From Gemmatimonadota bacterium (GTDB lineage Bacteria; Gemmatimonadota; Gemmatimonadetes; Palauibacterales; Palauibacteraceae), in NCBI GenBank assembly GCA_039588275.1, contig JBDHAC010000009.1:25883-89882 (forward strand): 64,000 bases of DNA, given 5' to 3'. Both the position numbers and the translations under genes were made by a program. Below the pieces are notes generated by a model that saw nothing but the letters and a program-made list of their open reading frames with translations, made no database searches and was not told where the DNA came from. Below are positions 2,560-17,891 of the stretch, piece by piece. The number at the start of each line of letters is the position of its first letter. Within the stretch, counting starts at the first letter, position 1.

Positions 2560-2763
2560 CGCTTTAATCTGCCCTGCTGGGCCCCTCGGACAACGCCGAG
2601 AGGAATAGCGCCCCCGTTTCCGGGCTTGCCCTGCGGCAGGCTCCCGAGCGGGGGCGCGTTGCATCCCCACCCGCCGCGTCGAATCTTCCGTGCTTCGCCG
2701 CCCCGAACCGGACGGCCACGCTCCGTCGTGGACGAGTCGGTGCATGACGAAAGGAAACGGTCG

Positions 2764-4773
2764 ATGACGTACGCGCGACGTTTGCTCCCCGCGTTGGCGA
2801 TCTTGTACGCCGCCGCTCAGGTGTCCCTGCACGCGCAGGGCGAGGCGGCCAGCATCGAGATCAGTCCTGCCTCGCTGGAGCTCGAAGTGGGAGACCAGGT
2901 GACGGTCGAGGCGCGGGTGCTCGACGCGAGCGGCCACACGGTGGACGCCCCCGTGATGTTCTTCCCCCTGTTCCGGGGTGAGAGACAGCGATTCGCCGGA
3001 CGGAACCTGGACGTGTCCCGGTTCGAGGGCGTCGTGAAGGCGATCAAGGGAGGCGAGTACCTGATCATCGCGATCGTGGCCGATGCGCGAAACGTGCGTA
3101 CTCAGATTCCGGTGAGCGTCGCGTTTCCCCCCCTCGACCGCGTCGACGTGACGCCCGGCGGCGGGCAGATGTACGCCGGGACGTCGGTGCGCCACGCGGC
3201 CACGCTCCTCGACACTGCGGGCGACGTACGGGACAGCGAAGTCCGTTGGTCCACCAGCGATCCGAGTGTGGCGGAGGTCGATCGCTTCGGCATCCTGACC
3301 GCCGGCGCACCGGGTCGAGTCACGCTCGCGGCAGAGGCCGAAGGGATCCAGGGAGCTGTCAGCTACGAGATCGTCGAGAACCCGACGGCCTCGATCTCGA
3401 TCAGCGCCAGCCGGGAGCGGGCTCGCACCGGCGAGGTGGTGCACTTCACGGCCGAGGCGCGTGACGCGACCGGCTCCGAGGTCGAGGGGATGCCGGTGAC
3501 CTTCACGGTTCTGGCGGATGCGGCGCTCGAAGCGACAGCGGACCTTCCCCCCGCCGAGGTGGATGACGAGGGGCGCTTCGTGGCGTATCGCCCCGGCGTG
3601 TACACCGTCGTCGCCAACGTCCCGGGGCACGCCGCGCGGCAGACCGTCGAGATTCACCCGCGTCACGTGTCGCAGGAGATCAAGTTCGTGGGTCAGGGGG
3701 CGGTCCATAACGTGTCGACATCCGACCTGTGGGTGTGGGAGGGAGCGGATGGTCGAGACTACGCGATCACCGGTACGCACCGGGCCAGCGGGGCGGTGTA
3801 CTTCTGGGACGTGACGGATCCGTCCAGCCCCGCTATGACCGATTCGATCGTCGTCGATGCCCGCACGACGAACGATGTGAAGGTCTCCGAGGACGGTGCG
3901 GTGTGCGTGATCTCGCGCGAGGGTGCCTCGAGTCGACGCAACGGAATCGTTATCCTCGATTGCTCCGACCCCAGAGACATCCGGGTCCATTCGACCTTCG
4001 ACGACGAGCTCACGGGCGGGGTCCACAACCTGTTCATCTACCAGGATCACGTGTACGCCGTGAACAACGGGATTCGGTTCGACGTGATCAACATCGAGGA
4101 CCCGACGAGCCCGCAGCGCGTGGGTCGCTTCGAGCTCGATACCCCGGGTCACGCGATCCACGACGTGTGGATCGTGGATGGGATCGCGTACACGTCGAAC
4201 TGGGGTGACGGAGTCGTCCTCGTCGACGTGGGTGGCGGAAACGTCGGTGGCAGCCCCTCGAATCCGGTCGAGATCGCTCGCTTTCGCGACATTGGCGGTG
4301 CTACCCATGCGGCCTTCCCCTACCGGAGTCCGACGGGGAAGTTCTACGTTTTCATGGGCGACGAGATCGGACGCCCCGGGTTCGACGGCCTGGATCAGGC
4401 GCGTACTCCGCAGTTCATGGCCGGCTACATCCACATCGTCGATTTCACCGACCCCGAGAACCCCGAAGAGGTCGCACGCTACGAGATCCCGGAGGCGGGG
4501 TCGCACAATCTGTGGATCGAGGGGGACAAGCTGTACGCGGCCTTCTACAACGGGGGACTGCGCGTCGTCGATATCTCGGGCGAGTTGAAGGGCAACCTGT
4601 ATCATCAGGGCCGCGAGATAGCGGTCTACAAGGCATACGACCCCGACGGAGTGGTCGCCAACGCGCCGTTCACGTGGGGGCCGCAGCCGCACAAAGGGAA
4701 CCTGTTTTTCGCCGAGTACTTCAGTGGCCTGTGGAGTGTCCGCCTGGAGCCTGGGGAGGAGCTGGTCCCCTGA
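2764..4773 (+). CDS. Secreted Ig-like (Big_2) + LVIVD-repeat beta-propeller protein
   Basis: Signal peptide ending AQG; WSTSDPSVAEVD Ig-like motif; repeated V(I)D(I/V)xDPxxP units with His at blade starts (VHN, IHD, THA, SHN). Confidence 0.75.
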   Translation: MTYARRLLPALAILYAAAQVSLHAQGEAASIEISPASLELEVGDQVTVEARVLDASGHTVDAPVMFFPLFRGERQRFAGRNLDVSRFEGVVKAIKGGEYLIIAIVADARNVRTQIPVSVAFPPLDRVDVTPGGGQMYAGTSVRHAATLLDTAGDVRDSEVRWSTSDPSVAEVDRFGILTAGAPGRVTLAAEAEGIQGAVSYEIVENPTASISISASRERARTGEVVHFTAEARDATGSEVEGMPVTFTVLADAALEATADLPPAEVDDEGRFVAYRPGVYTVVANVPGHAARQTVEIHPRHVSQEIKFVGQGAVHNVSTSDLWVWEGADGRDYAITGTHRASGAVYFWDVTDPSSPAMTDSIVVDARTTNDVKVSEDGAVCVISREGASSRRNGIVILDCSDPRDIRVHSTFDDELTGGVHNLFIYQDHVYAVNNGIRFDVINIEDPTSPQRVGRFELDTPGHAIHDVWIVDGIAYTSNWGDGVVLVDVGGGNVGGSPSNPVEIARFRDIGGATHAAFPYRSPTGKFYVFMGDEIGRPGFDGLDQARTPQFMAGYIHIVDFTDPENPEEVARYEIPEAGSHNLWIEGDKLYAAFYNGGLRVVDISGELKGNLYHQGREIAVYKAYDPDGVVANAPFTWGPQPHKGNLFFAEYFSGLWSVRLEPGEELVP

Positions 4774-4842
4774 AGGGCCGGCTCCGGTCCTCTTTCGACG
4801 ACGACGCCTTCCGCGGCCACGGAGACGGCGGGTAGGACCGCG

Positions 4843-5316
4843 ATGAGCCTCGTCCAGATCCGCGTGCGCGTGAACGGAGGGGAACACGAGGGCGACGTCG
4901 AGCCGCGTCTGCTGCTGAGCGACTTCCTGCGTCACGAGCTCGGGCTGACGGGGACGCACGTGGGCTGCGAGCACGGTGTGTGTGGCGCCTGCACCGTGCT
5001 TCTGGACGGAGAGCCCGTCCGGTCCTGTCTCCTGTTTGCGGTGCAGGCGAACGGTCGCGAGCTCACCACGGTCGAGGGATTGGCCGAAGACGGGGATCTT
5101 CACCCGGTCCAGCTGGCGTTTAGGGACGCACACGGGCTGCAGTGCGGCTTCTGCACCCCGGGCATCTTGATGACCGTGGTGGCCTTCCTGCGCGAGCAGC
5201 CGAGCCCGAGCCAGGAACAGATCCGCGACGTCGTCTCCGGCCACCTGTGCCGGTGCACCGGCTACCAAAACATCCTGGAAGCCGTGAAGCTCGCCGCTGA
5301 GCGGGGCTCGCCGTGA
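4843..5316 (+). CDS. Molybdenum hydroxylase small [2Fe-2S] subunit (CoxS/CutS family)
   Basis: GCEHGVCGAC...SC and QCGFCTPG...LCRCTGY motifs. Confidence 0.95.
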   Translation: MSLVQIRVRVNGGEHEGDVEPRLLLSDFLRHELGLTGTHVGCEHGVCGACTVLLDGEPVRSCLLFAVQANGRELTTVEGLAEDGDLHPVQLAFRDAHGLQCGFCTPGILMTVVAFLREQPSPSQEQIRDVVSGHLCRCTGYQNILEAVKLAAERGSP

Positions 5317-7694
5317 GCGAGCGCTGGTTCGGCGCGCCGGTGGTCAGAAACGAGGACCCACGGCTTCTCGCGGGCCAGGCGCTATTCGTGGACGACGTCC
5401 AGCTCCCGGGGCTTCTGCACGCGGCGTTCGTCCGCAGCGATCTCGCGCACGGACGTATCCGGAGTCTCGATCTTTCGGCTGCCCGCGCGCACCCGGGCGT
5501 CGTGGGCGTGTACTCGGCCGAAGACCTCGGAGACCTGTGTATCGCAGGACCCGTTCTGGTCCCGCCGCCTCCGATCGAGCGGCTGGAGTTCCACGCTCGC
5601 ACCCCATTGCCCCTCGCACGGGACCGAGTGCGTCACGTCGGCGAGGCCATCGCGGTCATCGTGGCCGAGAGCCGTTACACGGCCGAGGATGCGGCGGAAG
5701 CCGTGCAGCTCGACCTCGAGCCGCTGGACCCTGCCGTGGCGCTGGAGGCCGCTCTCGCGCCCGACGCGCCTCTGGTGCACGAGGACCTGGCCTCGAACCT
5801 GGCTGCGCACGTGATCCAGGAGAAGGGTGATTACCGTGCGGCGCGCGAAGCAGCGGATCGTGTCATCCGCCGACGCTTTCGATATGACAGGGGGGTCTCC
5901 GGGGCGCTCGAGAATCGCGGCATCGTGGCCTGGTGGGATCCTCACGATGGACGTCTTTCGGTCTGGGACACGACGCAGGCACCCATCCCGGTGCGCAACG
6001 CGCTCGCCGCCACCTTCGGTCTTTCCGAGTCGCAGGTCCGCGTGATCGCTCCGTTCATCGGCGGCGGCTTCGGACCGAAGATCATGTTCTACGGGGAGGA
6101 GATCATCCTGCCCTGGATCTCGCTCCAACTCGGGCGACCCGTGAAGTGGATCGAGGACCGCTACGAGAGCTTCTTCGCTACCACGCAGGAGCGGGAACAG
6201 ATTCACGACGCCGAGCTGGCGGTGGCCGCGGACGGGACGATCCTCGGGGTTCACGACGAGTTCCTGCACGATACCGGCGCGTACGATCCGTACGGGCTGA
6301 CGGTCCCGATCAACAGCCAGTGCACGCTCCTCGGCCCGTACCGGGTGCCCAGCTACTACAGCGAGTTCAGGGTCGTATTCACGAACAAGCCGATCGTCAC
6401 GCCCGTGCGGGGGGCAGGACGACAGCACGGCGTGTTCGTAATCGAGCGCCTGCTAGATGCGGCGGCAGGCGAGCTCGGCATCGACCGGGTCGAGATCCGC
6501 CGTCGTAACTACCTGGATCCGGAAGACTTTCCGCACGATCACCAGATCCTCTTTCAAGACTCGGCGCCCCTCACGTACGACAGCGGCAACTACGCCCCGG
6601 CGCTCGAGCGCGCCGCGGATCTGATCGGGTACGAAGCGTTCCCGGCCGAGCAGCAGAAGGCGCGGGACGACGGCCGCCACCTGGGGTTGGGGATCGTCTC
6701 GTACGTCGAGGGAACGGGGATCGGGCCTTACGAGGGTGCGCGGGTGACCGTGGAGCCGAGCGGCACCGTGTCCGTGGTCACCGGCGTCGGCACGCAGGGC
6801 CAGGGCCATTTCACCGTGTTCGCGCAGGTCGTGGCCGACCAGCTCGGGGTCGACCCGGCGCACGTCCGGGTCGTCACCGGCGATACGATGGAGTTCCACT
6901 GGGGAACGGGCACTTTCGCGAGCCGCGGGGCGGTGGTGGCCGGGAGCGCCTGCCACGCCGCCGCGCAGGCCGTGCGGGAGAAGATCTTCAGGCTCGCGAG
7001 CCACCTGCTCGAGGTAAGCGAGGATGATCTCGAGCTGGCGCATGGACGAGTGACCGTGAAGGGGGCGCCCGATCACGGATTCGACCTGAGCGAGCTGGCG
7101 GCTCGGGCCAATCCGCTTCGGGGCGCCGTGCGCCCCGGCACCGAGCCCGGGCTCGAAGCGACGTCGTATTTCGGGCCGGACCGGGGCAGCACGGCCAGCG
7201 GTGTGCACGCGCTGGTCCTGGAGGTGGATCCCGAAACGGCGCTCGCGAAGATCCTTCGATACGTCGTCGTGCACGACTGCGGGGTCGTGATCAATCCGAC
7301 GATCGTCGAGGGACAGATCCATGGAGGAGTAGCGCTCGGGATCGGAAACGCGTTCTACGAGCAGCTCCACTTCGACGAGTCCGGCCAGCTCTCGAACGCC
7401 TCGTTCATGGATTACCTGCTGCCGACCGCGACGGAGGTGCCCCCGATCGTGGCCGAGCACATCGAGACGCCGTCGCCGCTCAACCCGCTCGGCGTGAAAG
7501 GCGTCGGTGAGGCGGGGGCGATACCGGTGGCCGCCGCGTTCGCGCAGGCGATCGAGGATGCTCTCGCGCCATGGGGGATCGAGGTGCTGGAGATCCCGCT
7601 CAGCCCGCAACGCCTGTTCGACCTCCTCGAGAGGGCTTCGGGGGAGAGCCCCACCGAGGGTAAGCCGGGGGAGACGGAGGAGGTGACTCCATGA
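5313..7694 (+). CDS. Molybdenum hydroxylase large molybdopterin subunit (xanthine dehydrogenase/CoxL-like, not form I CODH)
   Basis: GGGFGPK, QGQGH, TFASR, KGVGEAG; active-site loop reads PVRGAGR rather than AYxCSFR; GTGA overlap with the small subunit. Confidence 0.93.
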   Translation: MSERWFGAPVVRNEDPRLLAGQALFVDDVQLPGLLHAAFVRSDLAHGRIRSLDLSAARAHPGVVGVYSAEDLGDLCIAGPVLVPPPPIERLEFHARTPLPLARDRVRHVGEAIAVIVAESRYTAEDAAEAVQLDLEPLDPAVALEAALAPDAPLVHEDLASNLAAHVIQEKGDYRAAREAADRVIRRRFRYDRGVSGALENRGIVAWWDPHDGRLSVWDTTQAPIPVRNALAATFGLSESQVRVIAPFIGGGFGPKIMFYGEEIILPWISLQLGRPVKWIEDRYESFFATTQEREQIHDAELAVAADGTILGVHDEFLHDTGAYDPYGLTVPINSQCTLLGPYRVPSYYSEFRVVFTNKPIVTPVRGAGRQHGVFVIERLLDAAAGELGIDRVEIRRRNYLDPEDFPHDHQILFQDSAPLTYDSGNYAPALERAADLIGYEAFPAEQQKARDDGRHLGLGIVSYVEGTGIGPYEGARVTVEPSGTVSVVTGVGTQGQGHFTVFAQVVADQLGVDPAHVRVVTGDTMEFHWGTGTFASRGAVVAGSACHAAAQAVREKIFRLASHLLEVSEDDLELAHGRVTVKGAPDHGFDLSELAARANPLRGAVRPGTEPGLEATSYFGPDRGSTASGVHALVLEVDPETALAKILRYVVVHDCGVVINPTIVEGQIHGGVALGIGNAFYEQLHFDESGQLSNASFMDYLLPTATEVPPIVAEHIETPSPLNPLGVKGVGEAGAIPVAAAFAQAIEDALAPWGIEVLEIPLSPQRLFDLLERASGESPTEGKPGETEEVTP

Positions 7695-8578
7695 AGCCGC
7701 CTCCGTTCGACTACGTGGCTCCGTCGAGCCTGGCGGAGGCGCTCCAACAGCTCGAGGAGGGCGGGTTCGACGCCCGTCCGCTCGCGGGCGGGCAGAGCCT
7801 GATCCCGATGCTGAACTTCCGATTGGCTCGAGCGACGCTCCTCATCGACCTGAACGGCGTGGACGAGCTCTCTTTTCTCCATGTCTCCGATGACGGCTCT
7901 CTGCGGATCGGCGCCATGACGCGGCAGCGCGCGGTGGAGCGCTCGGAGGATGTGGCTCGCGCGGCACCGCTGCTCGCCGAAGCCCTCGGTCACGTCGCGC
8001 ACCCGCAGATCCGCAACCGGGGCACGATCGGGGGCAGCCTCGCACATGCGGACCCGGCGTCGGAGCTCCCCGCCGTGATGCTCGCGCTCGGGGCGCGGTT
8101 CCGGGTCGAGGGAGTGAACGGCGATCGCTGGATTCCCGCCGCCGAGTTCTTCTTCGGGCCGTTCATGGCGGCGCTCGACCCGGGGGAGTTGCTGGTGGAG
8201 ATCGAGGTGCCGGCGCTCGAGAACGGGGACGGGTGGGCCTTCGAAGAGGTCGCGCGGCGCGCCGGAGACTACGCGCTGGTCGGGGTGGCCGCGCAGGTCC
8301 GTGTTGATGGGGCCGGAGTGTGCTCGAGCGCCGCGCTCGGATACGTGAACGCCGCCGCGACCGCGAGCCTCGCCCCAAGCGCGGCCGCGATCCTCGTCGG
8401 TGAGGCCCCGACGCCGGAGAGAATCGCCGAGGCCGCGCGGGCCGCGGCGACCGACGACTGTGAGCCTCCGTCGGACATCCACGCCTCCGAGGCGTATCGT
8501 CGACGCCTGGCGGAAGTGCTGACGCGCAGGGCGCTGGATCGGGCCTTCGCGCGAGCCGCGGAGGCACACGAGCCGTGA
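7691..8578 (+). CDS. Molybdenum hydroxylase FAD subunit (CoxM/CutM family)
   Basis: MKPPPFDY, AGGQSLIPMLNFR, IRNRGTIGGSLAHADPASE; ATGA overlap. Confidence 0.95.
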   Translation: MKPPPFDYVAPSSLAEALQQLEEGGFDARPLAGGQSLIPMLNFRLARATLLIDLNGVDELSFLHVSDDGSLRIGAMTRQRAVERSEDVARAAPLLAEALGHVAHPQIRNRGTIGGSLAHADPASELPAVMLALGARFRVEGVNGDRWIPAAEFFFGPFMAALDPGELLVEIEVPALENGDGWAFEEVARRAGDYALVGVAAQVRVDGAGVCSSAALGYVNAAATASLAPSAAAILVGEAPTPERIAEAARAAATDDCEPPSDIHASEAYRRRLAEVLTRRALDRAFARAAEAHEP

Positions 8579-10128
8579 TGGCGCGTGGCCCCGGTGAAGG
8601 GGCCGGCGACGGGAACGCTCTGCCCGGCGTAGAGCGCGTCGGCGATCTGGTACAGCTCACCGCATCTCTCCCCCCGGGACCTCTGGTAAACGACGACATC
8701 GCGCCTACCCCGCTCAGCGAGCGCACGTGGAACGTGTGGCACATTGCCTCGCTGTGGGTGGGGATGAGCGTCTGCATCCCCACCTACATGCTGGCCTCGA
8801 GCATGATCGAAGCGGGCATGAATTGGTGGCAGAGCTTGCTGGCGATCCTGCTGGGGAACGCCATCGTTCTCGTGCCCATGGTGCTGAACGCGCACGCGGG
8901 AACCCGCTTCGGTATTCCGTTCCCCGTGTTCGTACGTGCCCCGTTCGGTCCGCGCGGAGCGCACGTCCCCTCGCTCCTCCGTTCGGTGGTAGCGTGTGGC
9001 TGGTTCGGGATCCAGACGTGGATCGGAGGACTCGCCATCCACGCGCTCATCGGGATCCTGTGGGCGGGGTGGGATGGGCTCGGTGGCGGCTGGACCTTCA
9101 TGGGGTACGGCGTCCCGCATTACCTCAGCTTCGGGCTGTTCTGGCTCATCAACATGTACTTCGTGTGGCGGGGTACGGAGTCGATCAAGTGGCTGGAGAC
9201 ACTGGCTGCGCCGTTTCTGCTCCTGATCGGGATCGTCTTGCTGGTCTGGGCGATCGGGCGCGTGGGCGGGCTCGGACGCGTCCTGAGCGAGTCGAACCAG
9301 CTGATGAGCTCTGGACGCACCCTGCCTCCGAGTCGCTTCCTGCTCACGCTGTTCGTCCCATGGCTGACCGCCATGGTCGGCTACTGGGCGACGCTGGCCC
9401 TGAACATCCCCGACTTCACCCGCTACGCGAAGAGCCAGCGCGATCAGTCTGTCGGGCAGGCGCTGGGGCTGCTGACGACGATGCCGCTGTTCGCCTTCAT
9501 CGGTATCGTCGTGACGAGTGCCACCGTGGTGTTGTACGGCGAGGCGATCTGGAACCCGATCGATCTCGTGGCGCGGCTCACCGCCGATCGCGGGAGCCCG
9601 GTCCTGGGGCTGTTCGCGATGGCGGTCCTGGCCCTCGCCACGCTCTCCACCAACATCGCGGCCAACGTGGTGGCGCCTGCCAACAGCTTCTCGAACCTCG
9701 CACCGCGAGCCATCAGCTTTCGCACGGGGGGTCTGATCGCCGGCCTCATCGGGATCTTCATCCTGCCGTGGAAGTTGCTGGATGCCTATCAGATGTGGCT
9801 GATCACCTACTCGGGTCTCCTCGGTGCGGTGGGCGGGGTTCTGGTGTGCGATTACGCGTGGGTCAGACGCGGGTGGCTGGAGCTCGTCGATCTCTATCGG
9901 GAAGACGGCTCGTACGCCTATCACGGCGGCATCAACCGGGCGGCCATGATCGCGCTCGGGGCCGGGATCGCGGTCGCGCTCCTCGGACGACTGCACCCGG
10001 GCCTCGCGTTCCTGTTCAACGGAGCGTGGTTCTCGGCAGCGAGCGTGTCGTTCCTGCTCTACGCGTGGCTGATGCGAGACGAGCGCCAGCGGCTCGCGTC
10101 GGCGACCCGCAGTTCGACGGCGGCGTAG
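8575..10128 (+). CDS. NCS1 nucleobase:cation symporter (cytosine/uracil/allantoin/hydantoin permease family)
   Basis: W-x-GMSVCIPTY, GIPFPV, CGWFGIQTWIG, NIPDFTRYA, NIAANVV, PWKL; about 12 hydrophobic segments. Confidence 0.93.
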   Translation: MMARGPGEGAGDGNALPGVERVGDLVQLTASLPPGPLVNDDIAPTPLSERTWNVWHIASLWVGMSVCIPTYMLASSMIEAGMNWWQSLLAILLGNAIVLVPMVLNAHAGTRFGIPFPVFVRAPFGPRGAHVPSLLRSVVACGWFGIQTWIGGLAIHALIGILWAGWDGLGGGWTFMGYGVPHYLSFGLFWLINMYFVWRGTESIKWLETLAAPFLLLIGIVLLVWAIGRVGGLGRVLSESNQLMSSGRTLPPSRFLLTLFVPWLTAMVGYWATLALNIPDFTRYAKSQRDQSVGQALGLLTTMPLFAFIGIVVTSATVVLYGEAIWNPIDLVARLTADRGSPVLGLFAMAVLALATLSTNIAANVVAPANSFSNLAPRAISFRTGGLIAGLIGIFILPWKLLDAYQMWLITYSGLLGAVGGVLVCDYAWVRRGWLELVDLYREDGSYAYHGGINRAAMIALGAGIAVALLGRLHPGLAFLFNGAWFSAASVSFLLYAWLMRDERQRLASATRSSTAA

Positions 10129-11654
10129 TGGGCTCGGGCGTCAGCGGGATCCCACTCGTGGATCGGGCCGTCGCTCATCGTGAGAGGGTCGCGATCCTGG
10201 ATCGCGAAGGCGCGCATTCATACGAGGCGCTCGACCGCCGCTCGGCGGCCTGGGCGGCCGCTCTGCTCGCGGATCGGGCGGATCTCGAGGGGGCGCGCGT
10301 GGCCTATATGGTCCCCGCGGGCGCCGAGTACGTAGCCGTTCAGTGGGGGATCTGGCGCGCGGGCGGGATCGCGGTACCGCTTTGCTCCGATCACCCGCCC
10401 TTCGAGCTGGCGCGGTCGCTCGACGACTCCGGGGCCGAGGCGATCGTGTGTTCGGCCGAAGGCGTGAGCCGTCTGGAGCCGCTCGTCGACGAGCGCGGGA
10501 CTCGTCTTCTCGTCAGCGAAGCCGCCAGGCCGCCCGTCAGCGACGAGCGGCCGGTCCGCGACGGCGGGCTGCCCGAGGTGGAGCCCGGCCGCCGCGCGAT
10601 GATTCTGTTCACGAGCGGCACCACGAGCCGGCCGAAGGGTGTGGTGAGCACCCACGCCATGATCGAAGCGCAGGTGCGGTCCATGCTCGAGGCGTGGGAG
10701 TGGGAAGCGAGCGACCGCATCCTCCATATCCTGCCCCTGCACCATACGCACGGCATCATCAACGCCCTCGCGTGCCCGCTGTGGGCCGGCGCGACGTGTC
10801 GGATGCAGAGGGAGTTCGACGCCCGCCGTGTGTGGGACACGATCGCGGAGGGGGACATCACGCTCTTCATGGCGGTGCCGACGGTGTACGTGCGGCTGAT
10901 CGCCGCGTGGGATGGCGCCGAGTCCGAAGCGCAACGGCGGTGGACGGACGGCGCCGCCCGTCTCCGGCTCATGGTGTCGGGGTCGGCCGCGCTCCCGGCC
11001 AGGGTATTCGCGCGTTGGGAAGAGATCACCGGGCACCGGCTGCTCGAGCGGTACGGCATGACCGAGATCGGTATGGGGCTCTCGAACCCGTTGCGCGGCC
11101 CAAGGCGGCCGGGCACCGTCGGCCGCCCGCTACCGGGGGTCGACGTTCAACTGGTCGACGAGGTGGGTCACCCGGTCACGGACGAGGGCCGGCCGGGCGA
11201 GATCCGGATCCGGGGCCCGGGCGTGTTTCGAGAGTATTGGGAACAGCCCCAGGCGACGCGCGAGGCATTCGCGGGCGACTGGTTCAAGACGGGCGACATC
11301 GCCCAGCTCGAGGGGGGTTACTACCGCATCCTGGGTCGGAGCTCGGTGGACATCATCAAGACCGGTGGATACAAGGTCTCCGCGATCGAGATCGAGGAGA
11401 CCCTGAGAACCCACCCGCAGGTGGTCGACTGCGCGGTCGTGGGTGTCCCGGACGAGGAGTGGGGGGAGCGCGTGTGCGCGGCGGTGGTCCCGACTTCAAA
11501 CCTCGAGATCGAAGCTCTCGACGCCTGGAGCCGCGAGCGACTCGCCCGCTACAAGCTCCCGCGCACCTGGTTGGAGGTGGACGACCTGCCTCGCAACGCG
11601 ATGGGCAAGGTCCAGAAGCCCGCCGTCAAGGCGATGTTCGCCGACGAGTCGTAG
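10128..11654 (+). CDS. matB: Acyl-CoA synthetase, malonate/methylmalonate-CoA ligase (MatB/ACSF3-like)
   Basis: GTG overlaps the NCS1 stop; FTSGTTSRPKG, LPLHHTHGIINALACPLWAGA, RLMVSGSAALP, LLERYGMTEIGM, GRSSVDIIKTGGYKVSA, LPRNAMGKV match the ACSF3/MatB subfamily as I recall it. Confidence 0.82.
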   Translation: MGSGVSGIPLVDRAVAHRERVAILDREGAHSYEALDRRSAAWAAALLADRADLEGARVAYMVPAGAEYVAVQWGIWRAGGIAVPLCSDHPPFELARSLDDSGAEAIVCSAEGVSRLEPLVDERGTRLLVSEAARPPVSDERPVRDGGLPEVEPGRRAMILFTSGTTSRPKGVVSTHAMIEAQVRSMLEAWEWEASDRILHILPLHHTHGIINALACPLWAGATCRMQREFDARRVWDTIAEGDITLFMAVPTVYVRLIAAWDGAESEAQRRWTDGAARLRLMVSGSAALPARVFARWEEITGHRLLERYGMTEIGMGLSNPLRGPRRPGTVGRPLPGVDVQLVDEVGHPVTDEGRPGEIRIRGPGVFREYWEQPQATREAFAGDWFKTGDIAQLEGGYYRILGRSSVDIIKTGGYKVSAIEIEETLRTHPQVVDCAVVGVPDEEWGERVCAAVVPTSNLEIEALDAWSRERLARYKLPRTWLEVDDLPRNAMGKVQKPAVKAMFADES

Positions 11655-11765
11655 TTTGACTCCAGCCCGGCGATCCCGCCGGAACGTAGAGGTGCCCGCG
11701 GGGGGCGTCGGCGGCCCGCCGGGACAAGCGCCATCAACTCCGAAACGAAGCGAGGATCCGCCAAG

Positions 11766-12554
11766 ATGAAGCCCTACGACCTTTCCCAACCGTTGAACCA
11801 AGAAGTGTCTTTCTGGCCCTACTACCCGCCGTTCGAGGTCAAGTACATCAAGCGGAAGGCCGAGCACGGGGTGAACGCTCAGTACATCCAGACCTCGAAC
11901 CACATGGGGACACATCTCGATGCGCCGCGCCATTTCGTGACGAACGGGATGACGATCGACGAGATCCCGCTCGATTGGCTATACGGACCGGGGGTCATCG
12001 TCGATCTGTCGGATGAGATGGATGACCTGGGCGCGTACACGCCGGAGATGATCGAGTCGCGGGTCGAGGTGCGGGAAGGCGACCTCCTGATGCTGCACAC
12101 GGGCTGGCACCGCTACGGGCAATTCGGCGAAGAGGCCAACGAGGAGCGCTACATCCACCTGCACCCCGGCGCGCATCCTGACATGGTGCAGTGGCTGATC
12201 GACAAGAAGATCAAGATCTGGGGCGTGGATGCGATCTCGACGGACCACCCCATGAACCTCCCGATCGGGCGATTCCTCGGGAAGGGGACGTTCGGGCATT
12301 GCGATCGCGTGCGCCGCATCGCCGAGAACAAGTTCGGTGGCCCGGAGGGCGTGGCCGAGATCTTCCCCGACGATCACTACCAGCTCACGCACAACGCCCT
12401 CTTCCCGCTGAACTGCATGCACGTCGAGAACCTCGGAGGGCAGATCGAGGCGCCGGAGCTCCAGAATCGGCGGCTCACGATCGGGTGCTTCCCATGGCTG
12501 TTCAAAGGCGGCGAGGCGGCGTTCTGTCGCGTCGTGGCGTTCGTGGAGGAGTGA
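11766..12554 (+). CDS. Cyclase-family metal-dependent amidohydrolase (kynurenine formamidase/isatin hydrolase fold)
   Basis: HMGTHLDAPRH (HxGTHxDxPxH), GVDAISTD, HVENL. Confidence 0.88.
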   Translation: MKPYDLSQPLNQEVSFWPYYPPFEVKYIKRKAEHGVNAQYIQTSNHMGTHLDAPRHFVTNGMTIDEIPLDWLYGPGVIVDLSDEMDDLGAYTPEMIESRVEVREGDLLMLHTGWHRYGQFGEEANEERYIHLHPGAHPDMVQWLIDKKIKIWGVDAISTDHPMNLPIGRFLGKGTFGHCDRVRRIAENKFGGPEGVAEIFPDDHYQLTHNALFPLNCMHVENLGGQIEAPELQNRRLTIGCFPWLFKGGEAAFCRVVAFVEE

Positions 12555-12559
12555 GGGCG

Positions 12560-13795
12560 ATGATCGGTCGGCCCTCTCGACACCGGATGCGGAGCCACGG
12601 CGTCGCTCGGGGACCGCGCGGGCGGAGATCACTTCGCCGCGTCCCGGCGGTCGCTTCGATCCTGATCGCGGCGCTCGCGACCGCGTCGCTGGCGACCGCG
12701 GCCGCGGCCCAGGCCATCGATCGCGAGCAGCTCCTCGACTACATGCGGCAGGTGCGCGCCGACAACGACCTGCCGGGTCTGTCGGTGGCGGTGGCGCTGA
12801 ACGGCGAGATCGCGTTTGCCGAGGGAGTCGGATACGCCGAGCTGGACAATCGCACGCCGCAAACGGGGCGTACCGTTCACAACGTCGGATCCATCTCGAA
12901 GGTGTTGGCGGTCGTGGCGGTCATGCAGCTGGTGGAGCGGGGGAGCGTCGATCTCGACGCCACGATTCAGACATACCTTCCCTACTATCCCGAGAAGGAA
13001 TGGCCGATCACGGTTCGCCACATCCTCACGCATACCTCGGGCACCCGTCACTACAACGGGGTGGAGTTCGGGGAGCACGACCTCCTCGCGCTGCGCCGCT
13101 ACGACGACTTCGAGGAGGCGACTCGGCTGTGGCGCGATGATCCGCTCCTGTTCGAGCCGGGCACCCACTGGCTCTACTCGTCCCACGCCATGAACCTCAT
13201 GCACGGTATCGTGGAGACCGCTTCAGGGCTCGGGTTCGAGGACTACATGCGGACGTACGTATTCCAGCCCGCCGGCATGCTGGCGACGCAGTTCGATGTG
13301 CCATCGCGGATCATCAACAACCGGGGCCACGGCTACGTGCGCGAGGAGGGGGGTAGGTTCGTGCACGCTCCGCCCGAAGATCCGAGCTACAAGTACGCCG
13401 GCGGCGGCATTCTCTCCACCGTCGAGGACCTGGCGCGCTTCGGGCTCGCCCTGAACGACGGGAAGCTCTTGCGGCCGGAGTCACTGGCCGAGATGTACAG
13501 GCCGCAGCTGGATTCGTCCGTCAGGCGGTTCGCCCGGAACTCGGAACCGCAGCCGCTAGGCCACCGACAGGCGCTCGCCTGGTGGATCCGGACGGATCCC
13601 GCCGGCCGGGAGTTCCCGAGCCACACGGGCACCGTGAAGGGCACGAGATCCTTCATCGGCAATTACCCCGAGCACGGGCTCGTCGTGGCGCTCCAGGCCA
13701 ACACCCTCCCGCTGGACTCGGTGCGCTACGGGGTCGCGATCGCGCAGATGTTCTTGCCGGCCGCGGACAGCCCTGACGGCACCGGCGGGCCCTGA
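12560..13795 (+). CDS. Exported serine hydrolase, beta-lactamase class C/PBP fold
   Basis: SISK (SxxK), LTHTSG, YSS, HTG motifs; Ala-rich signal peptide; start may be later (12587). Confidence 0.85.
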   Translation: MIGRPSRHRMRSHGVARGPRGRRSLRRVPAVASILIAALATASLATAAAAQAIDREQLLDYMRQVRADNDLPGLSVAVALNGEIAFAEGVGYAELDNRTPQTGRTVHNVGSISKVLAVVAVMQLVERGSVDLDATIQTYLPYYPEKEWPITVRHILTHTSGTRHYNGVEFGEHDLLALRRYDDFEEATRLWRDDPLLFEPGTHWLYSSHAMNLMHGIVETASGLGFEDYMRTYVFQPAGMLATQFDVPSRIINNRGHGYVREEGGRFVHAPPEDPSYKYAGGGILSTVEDLARFGLALNDGKLLRPESLAEMYRPQLDSSVRRFARNSEPQPLGHRQALAWWIRTDPAGREFPSHTGTVKGTRSFIGNYPEHGLVVALQANTLPLDSVRYGVAIAQMFLPAADSPDGTGGP

Positions 13796-13805
13796 GCCCG
13801 AACCC

Positions 13806-15230
13806 GTGGATCTCGTCCTCCTCCCCGCGCACGAACAGACGCGACTCGTTCGCGTCGGAGAGGTGTCGGCGGCCGAGCTTCTGGATGCGTGCATGGCGCA
13901 GGTCGAGCGGCACAACGAGGCGGTCAACGCCGTGGTGACCCTGAACGAGCGGGCGCACGACGACGCCCGCGCGATCGACGAGGCGCTGGCACGCGGCGAG
14001 GACCCCGGTCCGCTCCTCGCTCTTCCGGTCGGCGTCAAGGATGTGACCGACACGGCCGGGATCCGCACCACGTACGGCTCCAAGCTCTATGCCGATCACG
14101 TCCCCGAGGAAGACGCGCTCGTGGTGCGCCGCTTTCGGGATGCGGGCGCGGTGATCCTCGGAAAGACGAACACGCCGGAGTTCGCGGCCGGCGCCAACAC
14201 GTCGAACGAGGTGTTCGGCGCCACGCGTAACCCCTGGAACCTGGAACGGAGCGCCGGGGGCTCGACGGGCGGCGGAGCCGCCGCCCTCGCGACCGGGATG
14301 ATCTCGCTGGCGCACGGAACCGACCTGGGCGGATCGTTGCGGATCCCCGCGTCCTTCTGCGGCGTGGTAGGTCTGAGACCCACCGCGGGGCTCATCCCCA
14401 CCTATCCGGCCGGCTACCTGTGGGACGATCTGCACGTGACGGGGATTATGGCGCGCGCGTCGGCCGACGTGGCGCTCTCGCTCCACGCGCTGTCGGGACC
14501 GAGCCCGCTATCACCGATGACCAGTCCGCTTCAAAGAGGCGGGATCCAGAGCATGCTCGCCGAGGCCGACCTGTTCCAGAGGCGGTTCGCGTACTGCCCG
14601 GATGTGGCCGGCAGCGGCATCGATACGAGTGTGGAATCGCGCTGCCGCGAGGTCGTGGAGATGCTCCGGGAGTGGGACGTGGACGTGGACGAGATCGAGC
14701 TGGATCTCGGCTATTGCCGGGATGCGTTCCTGGCGCTCCGAGCTTACGGCCTGGTCGCGCACCTGTTCGACGGCCTCGATCGCATCGACGATTACGGTCC
14801 CAACCTGAGCGCGAACCTGAAAGCCGGGCTCGCGGTCACGATGCGCGAGCTGGGCGCGGCCGAGGCTGCAAGACGCCGGGCCCGGCAGGAGATGCTGGCC
14901 CTGTTCGAGCGCTACGCGGTGATCCTGACGCCCTGCACGGCGGTCTCTCCGTTTCCCGTCGAGCAAAATTACCCGGAGGCGGTCGCGGGCAGACCGATGG
15001 AGACGTACGTGGACTGGATCGCCCCCACGTTCGTACTGAGCCTCCCGGGACTGCCCGTGGCCTCGGTCCCGGTAGGGCTGGACGACGAGGGTCTGCCCGT
15101 GGGGCTCCAGATCGTGGCCCCGCCGTTTCGCGAGACGCGCGCGCTGGCGATCGCGGGCGGGATCGAGGCGGAGCGGTCGATCGGCACGCCGGCGCTGCTC
15201 GCGCTCGACGGTGAGGATCCGACGCCATGA
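13806..15230 (+). CDS. Amidase signature family enzyme
   Basis: GVKD, GKTNTPEF, GGSTGG, GTDLGGSLRIPA (Lys-cisSer-Ser triad), GLPVGLQIV. Confidence 0.93.
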   Translation: MDLVLLPAHEQTRLVRVGEVSAAELLDACMAQVERHNEAVNAVVTLNERAHDDARAIDEALARGEDPGPLLALPVGVKDVTDTAGIRTTYGSKLYADHVPEEDALVVRRFRDAGAVILGKTNTPEFAAGANTSNEVFGATRNPWNLERSAGGSTGGGAAALATGMISLAHGTDLGGSLRIPASFCGVVGLRPTAGLIPTYPAGYLWDDLHVTGIMARASADVALSLHALSGPSPLSPMTSPLQRGGIQSMLAEADLFQRRFAYCPDVAGSGIDTSVESRCREVVEMLREWDVDVDEIELDLGYCRDAFLALRAYGLVAHLFDGLDRIDDYGPNLSANLKAGLAVTMRELGAAEAARRRARQEMLALFERYAVILTPCTAVSPFPVEQNYPEAVAGRPMETYVDWIAPTFVLSLPGLPVASVPVGLDDEGLPVGLQIVAPPFRETRALAIAGGIEAERSIGTPALLALDGEDPTP

Positions 15231-16408
15231 GCGATCACGAGGCGTGTGTCGAGTTCCTCCAGCGGCTGATCCGAACACGGAGCATGCCCGGAGAGGAAGC
15301 CGAGATCGCCCAGCTCGTGAAGGTCGAGATGGAGGGTTTGGGCTACGACGAGGTGGGGATCGACGCGGCCGGCAACGTGATCGGACTGCTGCGTGGCAGC
15401 GGGTCGGCGCCGACGGTGATGTTCAACACGCACCTGGATCACGTCGACGCCGGAGACCCGGCCGACTGGCCGCACCCGCCGTTTGGCGGCGAGATCCACG
15501 CGGATCACGTGTGGGGACGCGGCACGGTGGACATCAAAGGACCGTTGGCGGCGCAAGTGTACGGTGTAGGCCGCCTCGCTGCCGCCGGCGAGCGTCCACC
15601 CGGGGATGTGTACGTCACGGCAGTGGTCCAGGAGGAGGTCGGAGGGCTCGGCGCCCGCTTCCTGGCCGAGGCCCTGCGCCCCGATCTGATCCTGGTGGGT
15701 GAGCCGAGCCGGAACGAGGTGCGCCGGGGCCACCGCGGCCGCATCGAGCTCCGCGTGGCGGTGAAGGGAAGGATGGCGCACGCCTCGATGACGGAGATCG
15801 GGATCAACCCGCTCACCGTCATCGGAAGCTTCCTGGCCGCGCTCCCCGGCCTCCCGCTCCCGGACGATCCCGAGCTGGGGCAGGCGACGATCGCCCCGAC
15901 GTTGATCAGAACCGACCAGGCGAGCGCGAACGTGATCCCGGGAGAGGTGGTCCTGACGCTGGATTGTCGTACGGTGCCCGGGCAAAACGCGCATGACCTG
16001 CGAGAGGAGCTGCTCCCCGTACTGGAGAGAGCGGAGATCCCCGGAACGCGGACCGAGATCGTGATTCCGGAGTTCGATCGCGTGAGCTGGAGCGGGCTCG
16101 AGAAGCGATATCCCGCCGACAACCCCGCGTACGCGTTACCCGCGGATCATCCCGCGGTCCGAAGCGCCACCGGTGTCCTGGCGGCGACTCTCGGGGCCGT
16201 CCCACCGGTCGACGTCTGGCGCTTCGCGACGGATGGCGGCCACTTCGCCGAAGCCGGTCTGACGGTGGTGGGCTTTGGCCCAGGTGATGACCGCCTCGCC
16301 CACACGGTCGATGAAGCGATCGGTCTCGACGAGCTGGAAACGGGTCTGCGCGGGAACGAGGCACTCGCGCGAGGCTGGGGCGCGGCGTACGCGGCTCTCC
16401 TCGGCTGA
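15227..16408 (+). CDS. M20-family metallo-amidohydrolase (ArgE/DapE/YgeY-like)
   Basis: THLDHV, GRGTVDIKG, QEEVG, GEPS, AHTVDE; ATGA overlap with the amidase. Confidence 0.9.
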   Translation: MSDHEACVEFLQRLIRTRSMPGEEAEIAQLVKVEMEGLGYDEVGIDAAGNVIGLLRGSGSAPTVMFNTHLDHVDAGDPADWPHPPFGGEIHADHVWGRGTVDIKGPLAAQVYGVGRLAAAGERPPGDVYVTAVVQEEVGGLGARFLAEALRPDLILVGEPSRNEVRRGHRGRIELRVAVKGRMAHASMTEIGINPLTVIGSFLAALPGLPLPDDPELGQATIAPTLIRTDQASANVIPGEVVLTLDCRTVPGQNAHDLREELLPVLERAEIPGTRTEIVIPEFDRVSWSGLEKRYPADNPAYALPADHPAVRSATGVLAATLGAVPPVDVWRFATDGGHFAEAGLTVVGFGPGDDRLAHTVDEAIGLDELETGLRGNEALARGWGAAYAALLG

Positions 16409-16424
16409 GGAAGACCGGGATCTG

Positions 16425-17891
16425 CTAGCTCACCACGAACTCCGCCACGTGCGCCTCCTCCATCGGCGCGGTGGCGAGTGAAACGCCGACCATGACGATC
16501 GTGTTCGCCAGGATCCCCCAGATGCCCGGGTGCACGTCCGCGAACGAGGCCCCTGGGATCAGGTTCAGCGTCAACGTCACGGCGCCGCCCGCCAACAGAC
16601 CGGCGAGGGCACCGGCCGGGGTCGCTCGCGGCCAGAAGAACGTCGCCAGCAGGAGGGGGAATAGCTGCGCGATAAAGCCGTACGAGAGCAACAGCAGCTG
16701 GACGAGCGACACCTGCAAGACCACAGCGAGCAGGTAGGCGAGCGCCCCGAAGACCACGACGAGGACCTGAATGGCGCGCCGCTCCTGCGCGTCGGTGAGC
16801 TCGCGGCCCGAGATGTTGTCGTAGAAGTCCTTCACCGCCACGGACCCGCTCGCGTGCAGAAGCGCATCTCCCGTCGACATCGACGCCGCCAGGGCGCCCG
16901 CGCAAAACAGGCCCACCACCCAGGGCGGCAGCCCGATGGACGTCACGACGGTCGGGAGGATGGCATCGGCCGGCTCGACGCCCGGGAACGCGATGACGCC
17001 GGAGAAGCCGATGAACAGGATCGGGACGAGAAAGATCAAGAACGTCGGATAGAAGACGACGGTCTTTTTGAGCGTCGGGATGTCGCGGGCCGTGTAGATC
17101 TTCATGAAGTAGTGCGGCCACAAGCTGAAACCGAGGGCGGATATGGCCACCGAGCTGGAGAATGCGCCCCAACTCCAGGGCTCGCCGTTCGCGGCCAGGC
17201 CCGGGGCGCTCAGCATCTGCGGCGCGGCCTCCGCGATCGCATCGAACATGGGTCCCACACCCCCGTACAGCCGGTAGGGGAGGTAGAGGCCCAGACCCCA
17301 TGCCAGGGCCATCATGAACATGCCCTGGAAGGTGTTCGTCCAACCGACACCGAGCACGCCGCTGCGGAAGACGTAGATGAGCACGACGCCGTAAGCGATC
17401 CCGGCACCGGCCCATTCGGGTACGCGCCCCTCGGTCACGACGCTGAACACGTACCCGGCTCCCTCCATCTGGAGCATCAGGTACGGGATGAACGCGATCA
17501 GGGAGAGCACGGCGAGCAAGGCGGGCAGCGAGCGGCTCCGGAACCGGTGCCCGAACAGCTCGGCCTGCGTCACGTAGCCGAAGCGACGGCCCAGCCGCGC
17601 GACCCGCGGACCGAAGAAATACCACGGGACGAGCCCCACGGTGCCGTACGCGAGGATGTAGAACGCGGCGGCCCCCCGCGAGTAGGCCCACCCCGGTCCC
17701 CCCAGAAACGCGAACGCGCTGAAGATCGACGCGCCCATGATGAAGTAGAGGACCAGGAAGCCCAACGAGCGGTCACCGGCCACGTACCCCTCGGTGCTGC
17801 GGGAGACGCGCCGGCCCGACGCGAGACCGATGATCAGCGATGCGAGCAGATACCCGATCGTGACGAGGAAAACAACGAGCCAGGCGGGCAT
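16425..17891 (-). CDS. Sodium:solute symporter (PanF/MctP/YhjB-like)
   Basis: SIFSAFAFLGGPGWAY, GYVTQAE, AASMSTGD; 13 predicted TM segments. Confidence 0.92.
   Translation of the reverse strand: MPAWLVVFLVTIGYLLASLIIGLASGRRVSRSTEGYVAGDRSLGFLVLYFIMGASIFSAFAFLGGPGWAYSRGAAAFYILAYGTVGLVPWYFFGPRVARLGRRFGYVTQAELFGHRFRSRSLPALLAVLSLIAFIPYLMLQMEGAGYVFSVVTEGRVPEWAGAGIAYGVVLIYVFRSGVLGVGWTNTFQGMFMMALAWGLGLYLPYRLYGGVGPMFDAIAEAAPQMLSAPGLAANGEPWSWGAFSSSVAISALGFSLWPHYFMKIYTARDIPTLKKTVVFYPTFLIFLVPILFIGFSGVIAFPGVEPADAILPTVVTSIGLPPWVVGLFCAGALAASMSTGDALLHASGSVAVKDFYDNISGRELTDAQERRAIQVLVVVFGALAYLLAVVLQVSLVQLLLLSYGFIAQLFPLLLATFFWPRATPAGALAGLLAGGAVTLTLNLIPGASFADVHPGIWGILANTIVMVGVSLATAPMEEAHVAEFVVS

Follow-up and report, generated by a model that had tools for sequence, protein, structure and literature searches.

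A PF04199 cyclase-family hydrolase as a candidate non-homologous barbiturase in a molybdenum hydroxylase operon of Gemmatimonadota

A 64,000-nucleotide stretch of a Gemmatimonadota bacterium (assembly GCA_039588275.1, contig JBDHAC010000009.1, positions 25,883 to 89,882 of the forward strand; this whole stretch is called the window throughout) carries, at 11766-12554 on the + strand, a single open frame of 262 amino acids for a metal hydrolase of the cyclase family (Pfam PF04199), referred to here as the cyclase. Its sequence and the company it keeps suggest, at slightly better than an even chance, that it is a non-homologous barbiturase that would convert barbiturate into ureidomalonate (3-oxo-3-ureidopropanoate; EC 3.5.2.1). 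The broader statement that the cyclase acts directly on the product of a molybdenum (Mo) hydroxylase in the catabolism of an N-heterocycle is one that we hold to be very probable. A preliminary description of this DNA had singled the cyclase out as the best candidate for the ring-opening step, and the analysis strengthens this choice, as the cyclase constantly accompanies the hydroxylase in different phyla, its operon encodes a Mo hydroxylase and a permease of the NCS1 type, and the acyl-CoA ligase ahead of it resembles MatB.

In the oxidative pathway, as laid out in PMC3758960, uracil/thymine dehydrogenase produces barbiturate, barbiturase opens it to ureidomalonate, and ureidomalonase releases malonate and urea. 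The minimal cluster conserved around the cyclase consists of three enzymes, a Mo hydroxylase, the cyclase and an amidase, matching the three classical activities (PMC3758960). The cyclase would thus carry out the same reaction, between uracil dehydrogenase and ureidomalonase, as the barbiturase Bar of Rhodococcus erythropolis (EC 3.5.2.1, PF09663). In fold and mechanism the two proteins are unrelated: Bar combines a Ser-Lys dyad with the 'Toblerone' fold (PMC3758960), the cyclase a His/Asp metal site with that of PF04199. PF04199 is the only family that matches the cyclase in Pfam, and its membership in PF09663 was rejected; if the cyclase is a barbiturase, its sequence would make it an analogue of Bar.

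Gene neighbourhoods across phyla

We confirmed 262 relatives of the cyclase in contigs representing one genome per species, and the counts below cover the best 80 of these 262 loci, determined by tblastn with the window proteins and with modules taken from the loci (E ≤1e-15, at least 40% of the query). By record title, the loci come from Gemmatimonadota (43), Acidobacteriota (17), KSB1 (3), Bacillota (3), Calditrichota (2), Planctomycetota (2), Chloroflexota (2), Cytophagia (1), Deferribacteres (1) and Multivoraceae (1), with 5 unclassified. The FAD subunit of the hydroxylase and the amidase were each found in 65 of them, the Mo large subunit in 58, the [2Fe-2S] subunit in 54, the ligase in 40, an NCS1 permease in 36, CoxG in 20, a family III CoA-transferase in 13, an NCS2 permease in 12, AllG in 8 and AllF in 7. 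Many of the contigs are short; requiring no less than 7.5 kb of upstream and 4 kb of downstream sequence leaves a full-flank set of 53 loci. There, the large subunit accompanies the cyclase in 48/53 loci, an amidase or AllG in 49/53, a ligase or CoA-transferase III in 38/53 and an NCS1 or NCS2 permease in 28/53; for the full-flank loci outside Gemmatimonadota the corresponding values are 17/21, 18/21, 7/21 and 11/21. Sixty-nine loci extend 2.5 kb or more downstream, and in 28 of them the amidase starts no more than 400 nt after the cyclase ends. Of all these proteins the cyclase is the most conserved, with a median identity across loci of 82%, compared to 71% for the Mo large subunit, 69% for NCS1, 58% for the amidase and 57% for the ligase. 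Two further genes of the window operon, encoding a serine hydrolase and an M20 peptidase, recur in 17/80 loci each, all of them in Gemmatimonadota, and are lineage-specific additions.

Clustering of the 1153 open reading frames (ORFs) near the cyclase that do not overlap known matches, together with Pfam scans, indicated that the cyclase stays while its partners change. In two Bacillota loci, L022 and L027, the hydroxylase is of a different subfamily (26-27% identical), AllF and AllG stand on either side of the cyclase, and genes for carbamate kinase, an NCS2 permease, PucR and a CoA-transferase are close by. L027 (1-20783, uncultured Syntrophomonadaceae) starts with CoA-transferase III, an OTC-like carbamoyltransferase, AllH, NCS2, PucR and carbamate kinase, and continues with AllF, the cyclase, AllG, the FAD, [2Fe-2S] and Mo subunits and genes for maturation of the Mo cofactor (XdhC, MobA/YqeC), the Mo subunit being 26% identical to that in the window. 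The composition of this cluster, from an anaerobe, suggests that ATP is gained from the ureido group. AllF and AllG also stand beside the cyclase in the Anaerolineae loci L054 and L059, and four Gemmatimonadota loci (L017, L018, L047 and L067) carry both the amidase and a divergent AllG-AllF pair. In loci L022, L027 and L054 no amidase was found and AllF/AllG are there instead, which leaves no other hydrolase to open the ring.

In Escherichia coli, AllFGH is an oxamic transcarbamylase that converts oxalurate into oxamate and carbamoyl phosphate (PMC11326118), and oxalurate is the one-carbon-shorter homologue of ureidomalonate. The substrate class of this system, an N-carbamoyl-acyl amide, is the one expected for the product of barbiturate ring opening. 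Homologues of AllF/AllG flank the cyclase in 8/80 loci, with carbamate kinase in L027; they lie outside the window operon, and the substrate characterised for E. coli is oxalurate, not ureidomalonate. For the CoA-transferase, the nearest matches are SUGCT, which acts on dicarboxylates (8e-97), and oxalate CoA-transferases. Because AllFGH takes the homologue oxalurate, the ligase is MatB-like and the CoA-transferase SUGCT-like, the neighbours that replace one another suit the products formed from barbiturate. The step after the hydroxylase never changes partner, so ring opening is best assigned to the cyclase; the step that alternates between amidase and AllFGH is the one that would process a linear N-acylurea, and isatin hydrolase provides the precedent for hydrolysis of a cyclic amide within the cyclase family.

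A possible course of the reaction follows from this assignment. The NCS1 permease would import uracil or thymine, and the three-subunit Mo hydroxylase would hydroxylate C6 with water, giving barbiturate or 5-methylbarbiturate. In the cyclase, a metal-activated hydroxide at the H46/H50/D52 site would attack a ring carbonyl to yield ureidomalonate, with H56 and H209 as putative proton shuttles and E221 as a possible ligand of a second metal. The amidase would release the ureido nitrogen, a task that in other genomes would fall to an AllFGH-type carbamoyltransferase and carbamate kinase, and the MatB-like ligase would convert malonate or methylmalonate into the CoA ester, for which other genomes would use the family III CoA-transferase.

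Whole genomes show the same alternation. The genome of the window (G000) combines the hydroxylase-cyclase-amidase operon with AllG (PF06545), which is present with AllF on another contig; G402-G404 have the hydroxylase-cyclase-amidase cluster, and AllG was not found in them. G401 has a hydroxylase-cyclase cluster (L054), in which no amidase was found, and AllG is present; G405 has an NCS1-ligase-cyclase-amidase cluster (L065), with no large subunit in reach, and AllG is again present. Since G402-G404 have the cluster of Mo hydroxylase, cyclase and amidase with no AllG found, a purely hydrolytic three-enzyme route appears to exist, and gene content indicates that hydrolytic and phosphorolytic versions of the cluster both occur. 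In the genome of the window, AllG and AllF (contig C47, 6206-9371, locus L093) are 57% and 38% identical to the L027 proteins and lie amid unrelated genes for an aldehyde dehydrogenase and a phosphopantetheinyl transferase; in related Gemmatimonadota the pair directly follows the cluster amidase.

A plasmid collection yielded only paralogues of the cyclase, at most 43% identical, with 12 of the 15 listed matches being haloarchaeal. On haloarchaeal megaplasmids a Mo hydroxylase (31% identical) accompanies a 42% paralogue, along with CoxG, XdhC and an SLC23/NCS2 permease, e.g. on Halorussus caseinilyticus plasmid NZ_CP119810.1 (172485-191222, locus L103), and cultured haloarchaea with this paralogue (Halorussus, Natrinema, Haloarcula) might serve as a starting point for experiments. 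Contexts vary within the wider subfamily, because the neighbours of a 35% paralogue in Rhodococcus ruber are of the aromatic dioxygenase/nitrilase kind. In a KSB1 genome (L019), a gene for 2-thiouracil desulfurase (PF04463) was noticed at 15294-15788, about 5 kb downstream of a cyclase-ligase-amidase set, a small hint toward uracil-type substrates.

Sequence, fold and orthologous group

The cyclase starts with an ATG that is preceded by GAGGA, and its orthologues begin at the same residue. The match to PF04199 'Cyclase' (E 3e-39, 134.9 bits against a gathering cut-off of 23.1, residues 4-161) and the 828 homologues recovered in a word-indexed search, the best of them 89% identical over the full length, mean that the ORF is not a chance frame. 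Full-length identity among the 120 homologues listed ranges from 78 to 89%, and annotation pipelines have named several of them 'kynurenine formamidase' or 'arylformamidase'; clusters matched in the ESM Atlas were all labelled 'cyclase family protein'. The translation contains GVDAISTDHP, MNLPIGRFLGKGTFGHCD and GGEAAFCRVVA, and the features that had been noted in it at the outset, an intact HxGTHxDxPxH metal motif (H46-x-G48-T49-H50-x-D52-x-P54-x-H56), a long insert after DHP (~45 residues, about 162-206) and the GGEAAFCRVVA C-terminus, are all seen. Pfam and PDB sequence alignments span residues 4-161 only, which makes the last 100 residues of the chain atypical with respect to the family model.

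An AlphaFold2 (AF2) model built from a 34-row alignment has a mean pLDDT of 91.9 and a pTM of 0.90, with the whole chain forming one domain; the extra segment comprises three short helices (166-169, 178-189 and 193-199) and a low-confidence loop at 172-174. In a Foldseek search against the PDB, all 18 entries listed at E ≤3.3e-11 share the cyclase fold (TMq 0.60-0.75), including 8F9X, the isatin hydrolases 5NNA, 4M8D and 4J0N (TM 0.71-0.75), the KynB structures 4CO9, 4COB and 4COG, and uncharacterised structures. The cyclic-amide hydrolase 4J0N has a TM of 0.75 to the model. With H209 and E221 also in place, the model and the structural matches agree with the family placement made from the letters, and the cyclase is predicted to be a binuclear- or mononuclear-metal amidohydrolase of the KynB/isatin hydrolase fold.

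Residue conservation points to the same active site. H46, T49, H50, D52, H56 and H209 are invariant in 34 sequences comprising orthologues and distant relatives, and an alignment of 24 orthologues spanning phyla has 111 invariant positions, among them H46, H50, D52, H56, H209, H219, E221, R255, S158-T-D-H-P-M and L165-P-I-G-R-F-L-G; the invariant segment STDHPM-x-LPIGRFLG-x-G is specific to the group. KynB has the metal ligands His50/His54/Asp56/His161/Glu173 and the base His60 (PMC4243253, PMC6117287). H46/H50/D52, H56, H209 and E221 mirror this set as well as the isatin hydrolase triad, with H209 and E221 mapped to His161 and Glu173 by motif pattern. The second-site position reads H-V/I-E-N-L in all 24 orthologues and thus holds a KynB-type glutamate, which may mark linear-amide activity or a binuclear site; isatin hydrolases carry GLQC/GLAS there (PMC6117287). 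By inspection of the sequence, the N-terminal FWPYYPPF has no obvious match to the WxW/FxW pocket motif of isatin hydrolases (PMC6117287).

The orthologues are 73-89% identical across at least eight phyla. In an exhaustive comparison with 50%-identity representatives, the next full-length relatives are 34-44% identical, apart from fragments and one 70% representative, and the orthologues thus appear as a sharply delimited group. The insert and a GGEA-type C-terminus recur in full-length relatives at 33-44% identity; by sequence, both features would define a wider subfamily, with only the LPIGRFLG-x-G segment appearing specific to the orthologue group. The insert and C-terminus noted earlier are thus present but not unique to the cyclase, and because paralogues of other contexts share both, they are by themselves no argument for barbiturate. 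Among the relatives, P0128 (556 aa) and P0137 (524 aa) have two matched stretches each, 34-42% identical, and look like tandem-duplicated or fused cyclase domains. A second PF04199 gene in the genome of the window (contig C57, L094 7423-8394) encodes a protein 33% identical to the cyclase and is flanked by genes for an M20 amidohydrolase and a homologue of EreB-like esterases; its product also is no KynB equivalog, scoring far below the cut-off (TIGR03035 59.8 against 223).

The best match among solved structures, in sequence and in Foldseek, is C-PTE of Ruegeria pomeroyi (8F9X), an enzyme that shows that the cyclase family has evolved non-formamidase activities (PMC12135135). Identity between the two proteins is 24%, and C-PTE differs in that it acts on a phosphotriester, lacks the insert and is not linked to a Mo hydroxylase.

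The operon and pyrimidine routes of the genome

The cyclase is the sixth gene of a + strand operon, reported as a ten-gene operon, in which neighbours overlap or nearly touch:

4843-5316, +, small [2Fe-2S] subunit of the Mo hydroxylase, encoded at the start of the operon (PF01799 3.9e-32, PF00111), 4-nt overlap with the next gene
5313-7694, +, molybdopterin large subunit, putative uracil/thymine dehydrogenase (PF02738, PF20256, PF01315)
7691-8578, +, FAD medium subunit of the Mo hydroxylase (PF00941 4.9e-49, PF03450)
8575-10128, +, permease of the NCS1 nucleobase:cation symporter type (PF02133 2.6e-111)
10128-11654, +, MatB-like acyl-CoA ligase of 508 aa, proposed malonate/methylmalonate-CoA ligase (PF00501, PF13193)
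11655-11765, no strand, 111-nt intergenic gap between ligase and cyclase, the sole large gap of the operon
11766-12554, +, PF04199 cyclase-family metal hydrolase, candidate barbiturate ring opener (Pfam, orthologue alignment, AF2 model)
12560-13795, +, beta-lactamase-family serine hydrolase with a hydrophobic N-terminal leader as read from the DNA (PF00144 8.7e-68)
13806-15230, +, amidase of the amidase-signature family, proposed as ureidomalonase or, where AllFGH precedes it, as malonamidase (PF01425 3.1e-97)
15227-16408, +, M20 peptidase/deacylase, YgeY-like below the cut-off, last gene of the operon (PF01546, PF07687; NF009555 264 against 321)

Upstream, a terminator-like hairpin (4758-4785, a consensus match only) lies just before the operon; downstream, the next gene after M20, encoding an SSF protein (16425-17891), is on the opposite strand. 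The gap at 11655-11765 has no Rfam match, a fold z-score of -0.43 and no promoter-like site, with promoter and terminator scans at or below chance. The serine hydrolase with its leader sits in an otherwise cytoplasmic-looking operon. Immediately before the operon comes a gene for a Big_2/LVIVD-repeat protein (2626-4773), which 14 Gemmatimonadota loci conserve along with it, and a PAS-GGDEF-EAL protein (25603-28125) is encoded further downstream.

The genes around the cyclase bear out the description of a nucleobase operon in that a Mo hydroxylase and a nucleobase-type NCS1 permease are encoded with it, the latter matching TIGR00800 with 358.2 against a cut-off of 353.1. For the large subunit, the best NCBIfam model is NF040766, 'aerobic CO dehydrogenase large subunit, group 5', with 905 bits, just under the cut-off of 950, so close relatives of this hydroxylase probably carry CO dehydrogenase annotations despite a context of nucleobase catabolism; the best PDB matches are CoxL (8UEM), quinoline 2-oxidoreductase (1T3Q) and 6-hydroxypseudooxynicotine dehydrogenase (7DQX). 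A simple regular expression found no loop of the AYxCSFR/AYRGAGR type in the large subunit. The ligase aligns end to end with MatB of Rhodopseudomonas palustris (4FUQ/4GXQ), and malonyl-CoA synthetases (4e-77 to 6e-72, 263 bits) rank ahead of oxalate-CoA ligase (2.7e-64, 221 bits) among its PDB matches. The malonate ligase that had been placed directly before the cyclase is therefore real and MatB-like, but its gene is 10128-11654 and not ORF 10343-11659 (438 aa), which we rejected as an Arg/Gly-rich wrong frame in GC-rich DNA with no family match; the true frame sits inside a listed '975-aa' ORF (8727-11654), and its GTG start overlaps the permease stop. The amidase is below the cut-off of all NCBIfam amidase models, its PDB relatives including AtzE/biuret hydrolase (6C62), malonamidase E2, allophanate hydrolase and 6-aminohexanoate cyclic-dimer hydrolase (3A2P).

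The canonical barbiturase family was searched for across two phyla. PF09663 (AtzD/TrzD/barbiturase) was not found in the genome of the window, which is 86% complete, nor in any of 401 genomes of the phylum of G402 or in five further cyclase-bearing genomes, and it occurs in 1/401 genomes of the own phylum; an orthologue of the cyclase was found in 47 of these 401 genomes and in 23/30 of the own family. The sole PF09663 match (G351:C3:5876-6906, L086-L091) indicates that the search can detect the family. It is spread over several frames, as could result from a frameshifted gene or assembly errors, and adjoins an amidase 36% identical to that of the window, with no hydroxylase there. Flanking of PF09663 by the same hydroxylase, amidase and ligase was thus not seen: the hydroxylase is missing at G351, and the 401 genomes of the phylum of G402 offer no case. 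In the genome of the window, 86% complete, neither RutA nor a dihydropyrimidinase above the cut-off was found.

Weighing of the assignment and its meaning

Several points weigh against a barbiturase. We infer the ring-opening assignment and every substrate by association, and the 80 loci are a selected set, the best of 262, in which the 43 that come from one phylum are not independent. Five of the 53 full-flank loci (L019, L028, L035, L041 and L065) have no large subunit in reach, and in the window the 111-nt gap sets the cyclase apart from the ligase. The hydroxylase finds its best models among CO dehydrogenase, quinoline and nicotine-pathway enzymes, the best specific models of the NCS1 permease are allantoin permeases, below their cut-offs, and the ligase reaches only 372 against a cut-off of 558 with its best NCBIfam model, NF005702 malonyl-CoA synthase. 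The cyclase keeps the KynB-type glutamate (H-V-E-N), and the only characterised substrate of AllFGH, oxalurate, points to a five-membered ring such as parabanate. The comparison of PF09663 neighbourhoods covers only the own phylum and the phylum of G402. In the genome of the window, at 86% completeness, no malonyl-CoA decarboxylase was found, and urease gave only a 25-bit match; because the assembly is incomplete to this extent, these absences, like those of RutA and dihydropyrimidinase, are weak evidence. To our knowledge, no gene sequence is known for uracil/thymine dehydrogenase or for ureidomalonase, and the substrate of the hydroxylase is therefore not checkable by homology. The open literature searched, with subscription papers outside its scope, contained no gene for either enzyme and no reference sequence for uracil/thymine dehydrogenase (EC 1.17.99.4), and its full texts made no link between PF04199 proteins and barbiturate.

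The main alternative, which we consider rather unlikely, is that the same architecture serves another imported N-heterocycle, such as a ring derived from a purine or from imidazole/hydantoin, a hydroxypyrimidine or cytosine, for example in a route from parabanate through oxalurate and oxalate to oxalyl-CoA. The characterisation of AllFGH on oxalurate (PMC11326118) would fit such a route, as would the allantoin permeases among the NCS1 models, the PucR-type regulator in L027, oxalate-CoA ligase as the second-best PDB class of the ligase (2.7e-64) and the matches of the CoA-transferase to formyl-CoA:oxalate transferases. Yet malonyl-CoA synthetases beat oxalate ligases by 263 to 221 bits, no oxalyl-CoA decarboxylase is conserved in the loci, and Mo hydroxylases attack an sp2 C-H beside a ring nitrogen, which fits C6 of uracil; we know of no Mo hydroxylase route to parabanate. 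The permeases that alternate across loci, NCS1 and NCS2, belong to families that both include uracil carriers, which likewise argues against a different ring. Still less probable is an exchange of roles, in which the amidase or another protein opens the ring and the cyclase, like KynB, then cleaves a linear amide (ureidomalonate, malonamate or a formamide). The glutamate of KynB type in the cyclase would be in keeping with this, and amidase-signature enzymes can open cyclic amides, with 3A2P among the PDB relatives of the window amidase; but L022, L027 and L054 keep the cyclase with no amidase found and with AllF/AllG acting on linear ureides, and the characterised relatives of the amidase (AtzE, allophanate hydrolase and malonamidase) act on linear ureides and amides.

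The two best-known functions of the fold are effectively excluded. An isatin hydrolase of an indole or oxindole route, in which a Mo hydroxylase would make isatin and a CoA ligase would activate the resulting acid, is highly improbable. Anaerobic bacteria are known to degrade indole through Mo hydroxylation, isatin hydrolases show the greatest structural similarity (TM 0.71-0.75), and LaIHA/LaIHB (5NNA, 4J0N) share with the cyclase the fold, the HxGTHxDxPxH site, the proton-shuttle histidines and, in their case, cleavage of a cyclic amide. However, the cyclase is only ~20-22% identical to them, has a 45-residue insert after DHP and a different gene context, and replaces GLQC/GLAS (PMC6117287) by H-V-E-N-L with its KynB-type glutamate. 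Membership among isatin hydrolases was rejected on H-V/I-E-N-L in place of GLQC/GLAS in 24/24 orthologues. The partners disagree as well, as nucleobase permeases, AllFGH and carbamate kinase do not suit an indole route and the ligase is MatB-like, not anthranilate-ligase-like. The least probable reading of all is a kynurenine formamidase (KynB) of tryptophan catabolism. It would account for the many homologues named 'kynurenine formamidase' or 'arylformamidase', and TIGR03035 is the only NCBIfam match of the cyclase; the two proteins have the same fold, and the residues that form the binuclear Zn site of KynB (4CO9, 4COB, 4COG) together with its catalytic His, six in all, are matched in pattern. 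But the score is 65.7 bits against a cut-off of 223.05, the alignment covers residues 4-160 only, and the cyclase has 262 aa against ~210 for KynB. Tryptophan 2,3-dioxygenase (TDO) was found in 0/80 related loci, the cyclase never standing beside kynA, and the TDO gene of the own genome is on contig C2, with the cyclase on C9; kynureninase was not searched for. KynB membership was rejected on the equivalog score and the lack of TDO linkage, and the clustering with KynB in tryptophan operons that would have spoken against a barbiturase was not seen.

Returning to the cyclase as a candidate barbiturase, the wider claim that its orthologue group marks a widespread, undescribed, O2-independent route for uracil and thymine seems to us evenly balanced between true and false. 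Such a route would span at least eight phyla, including strict anaerobes, and would combine a Mo hydroxylase, a PF04199 ring opener and either an amidase or AllFGH with carbamate kinase, the latter yielding ATP, before ending in malonyl-CoA.

The oxidative barbiturate route has so far been regarded as rare and tied to one enzyme family, with AtzD/Bar homologues in 3% of 6423 genomes (PMC3758960). If the assignment is true, the route would extend much further, into uncultured lineages of soil and sea and into anaerobic ones, it could run without oxygen, and some organisms would conserve energy from it via carbamoyl phosphate. The cluster would supply gene sequences for uracil/thymine dehydrogenase and ureidomalonase, and many annotations of 'form II/group 5 CO dehydrogenase' and 'kynurenine formamidase' would have to be relabelled. 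A highly conserved protein now called 'cyclase family protein' or 'kynurenine formamidase', and with it a set of CO-dehydrogenase-like Mo hydroxylases, would gain a testable function, and the cyclase would represent a clean case of non-homologous enzyme replacement, in which a known pathway step is carried out by a different known family.

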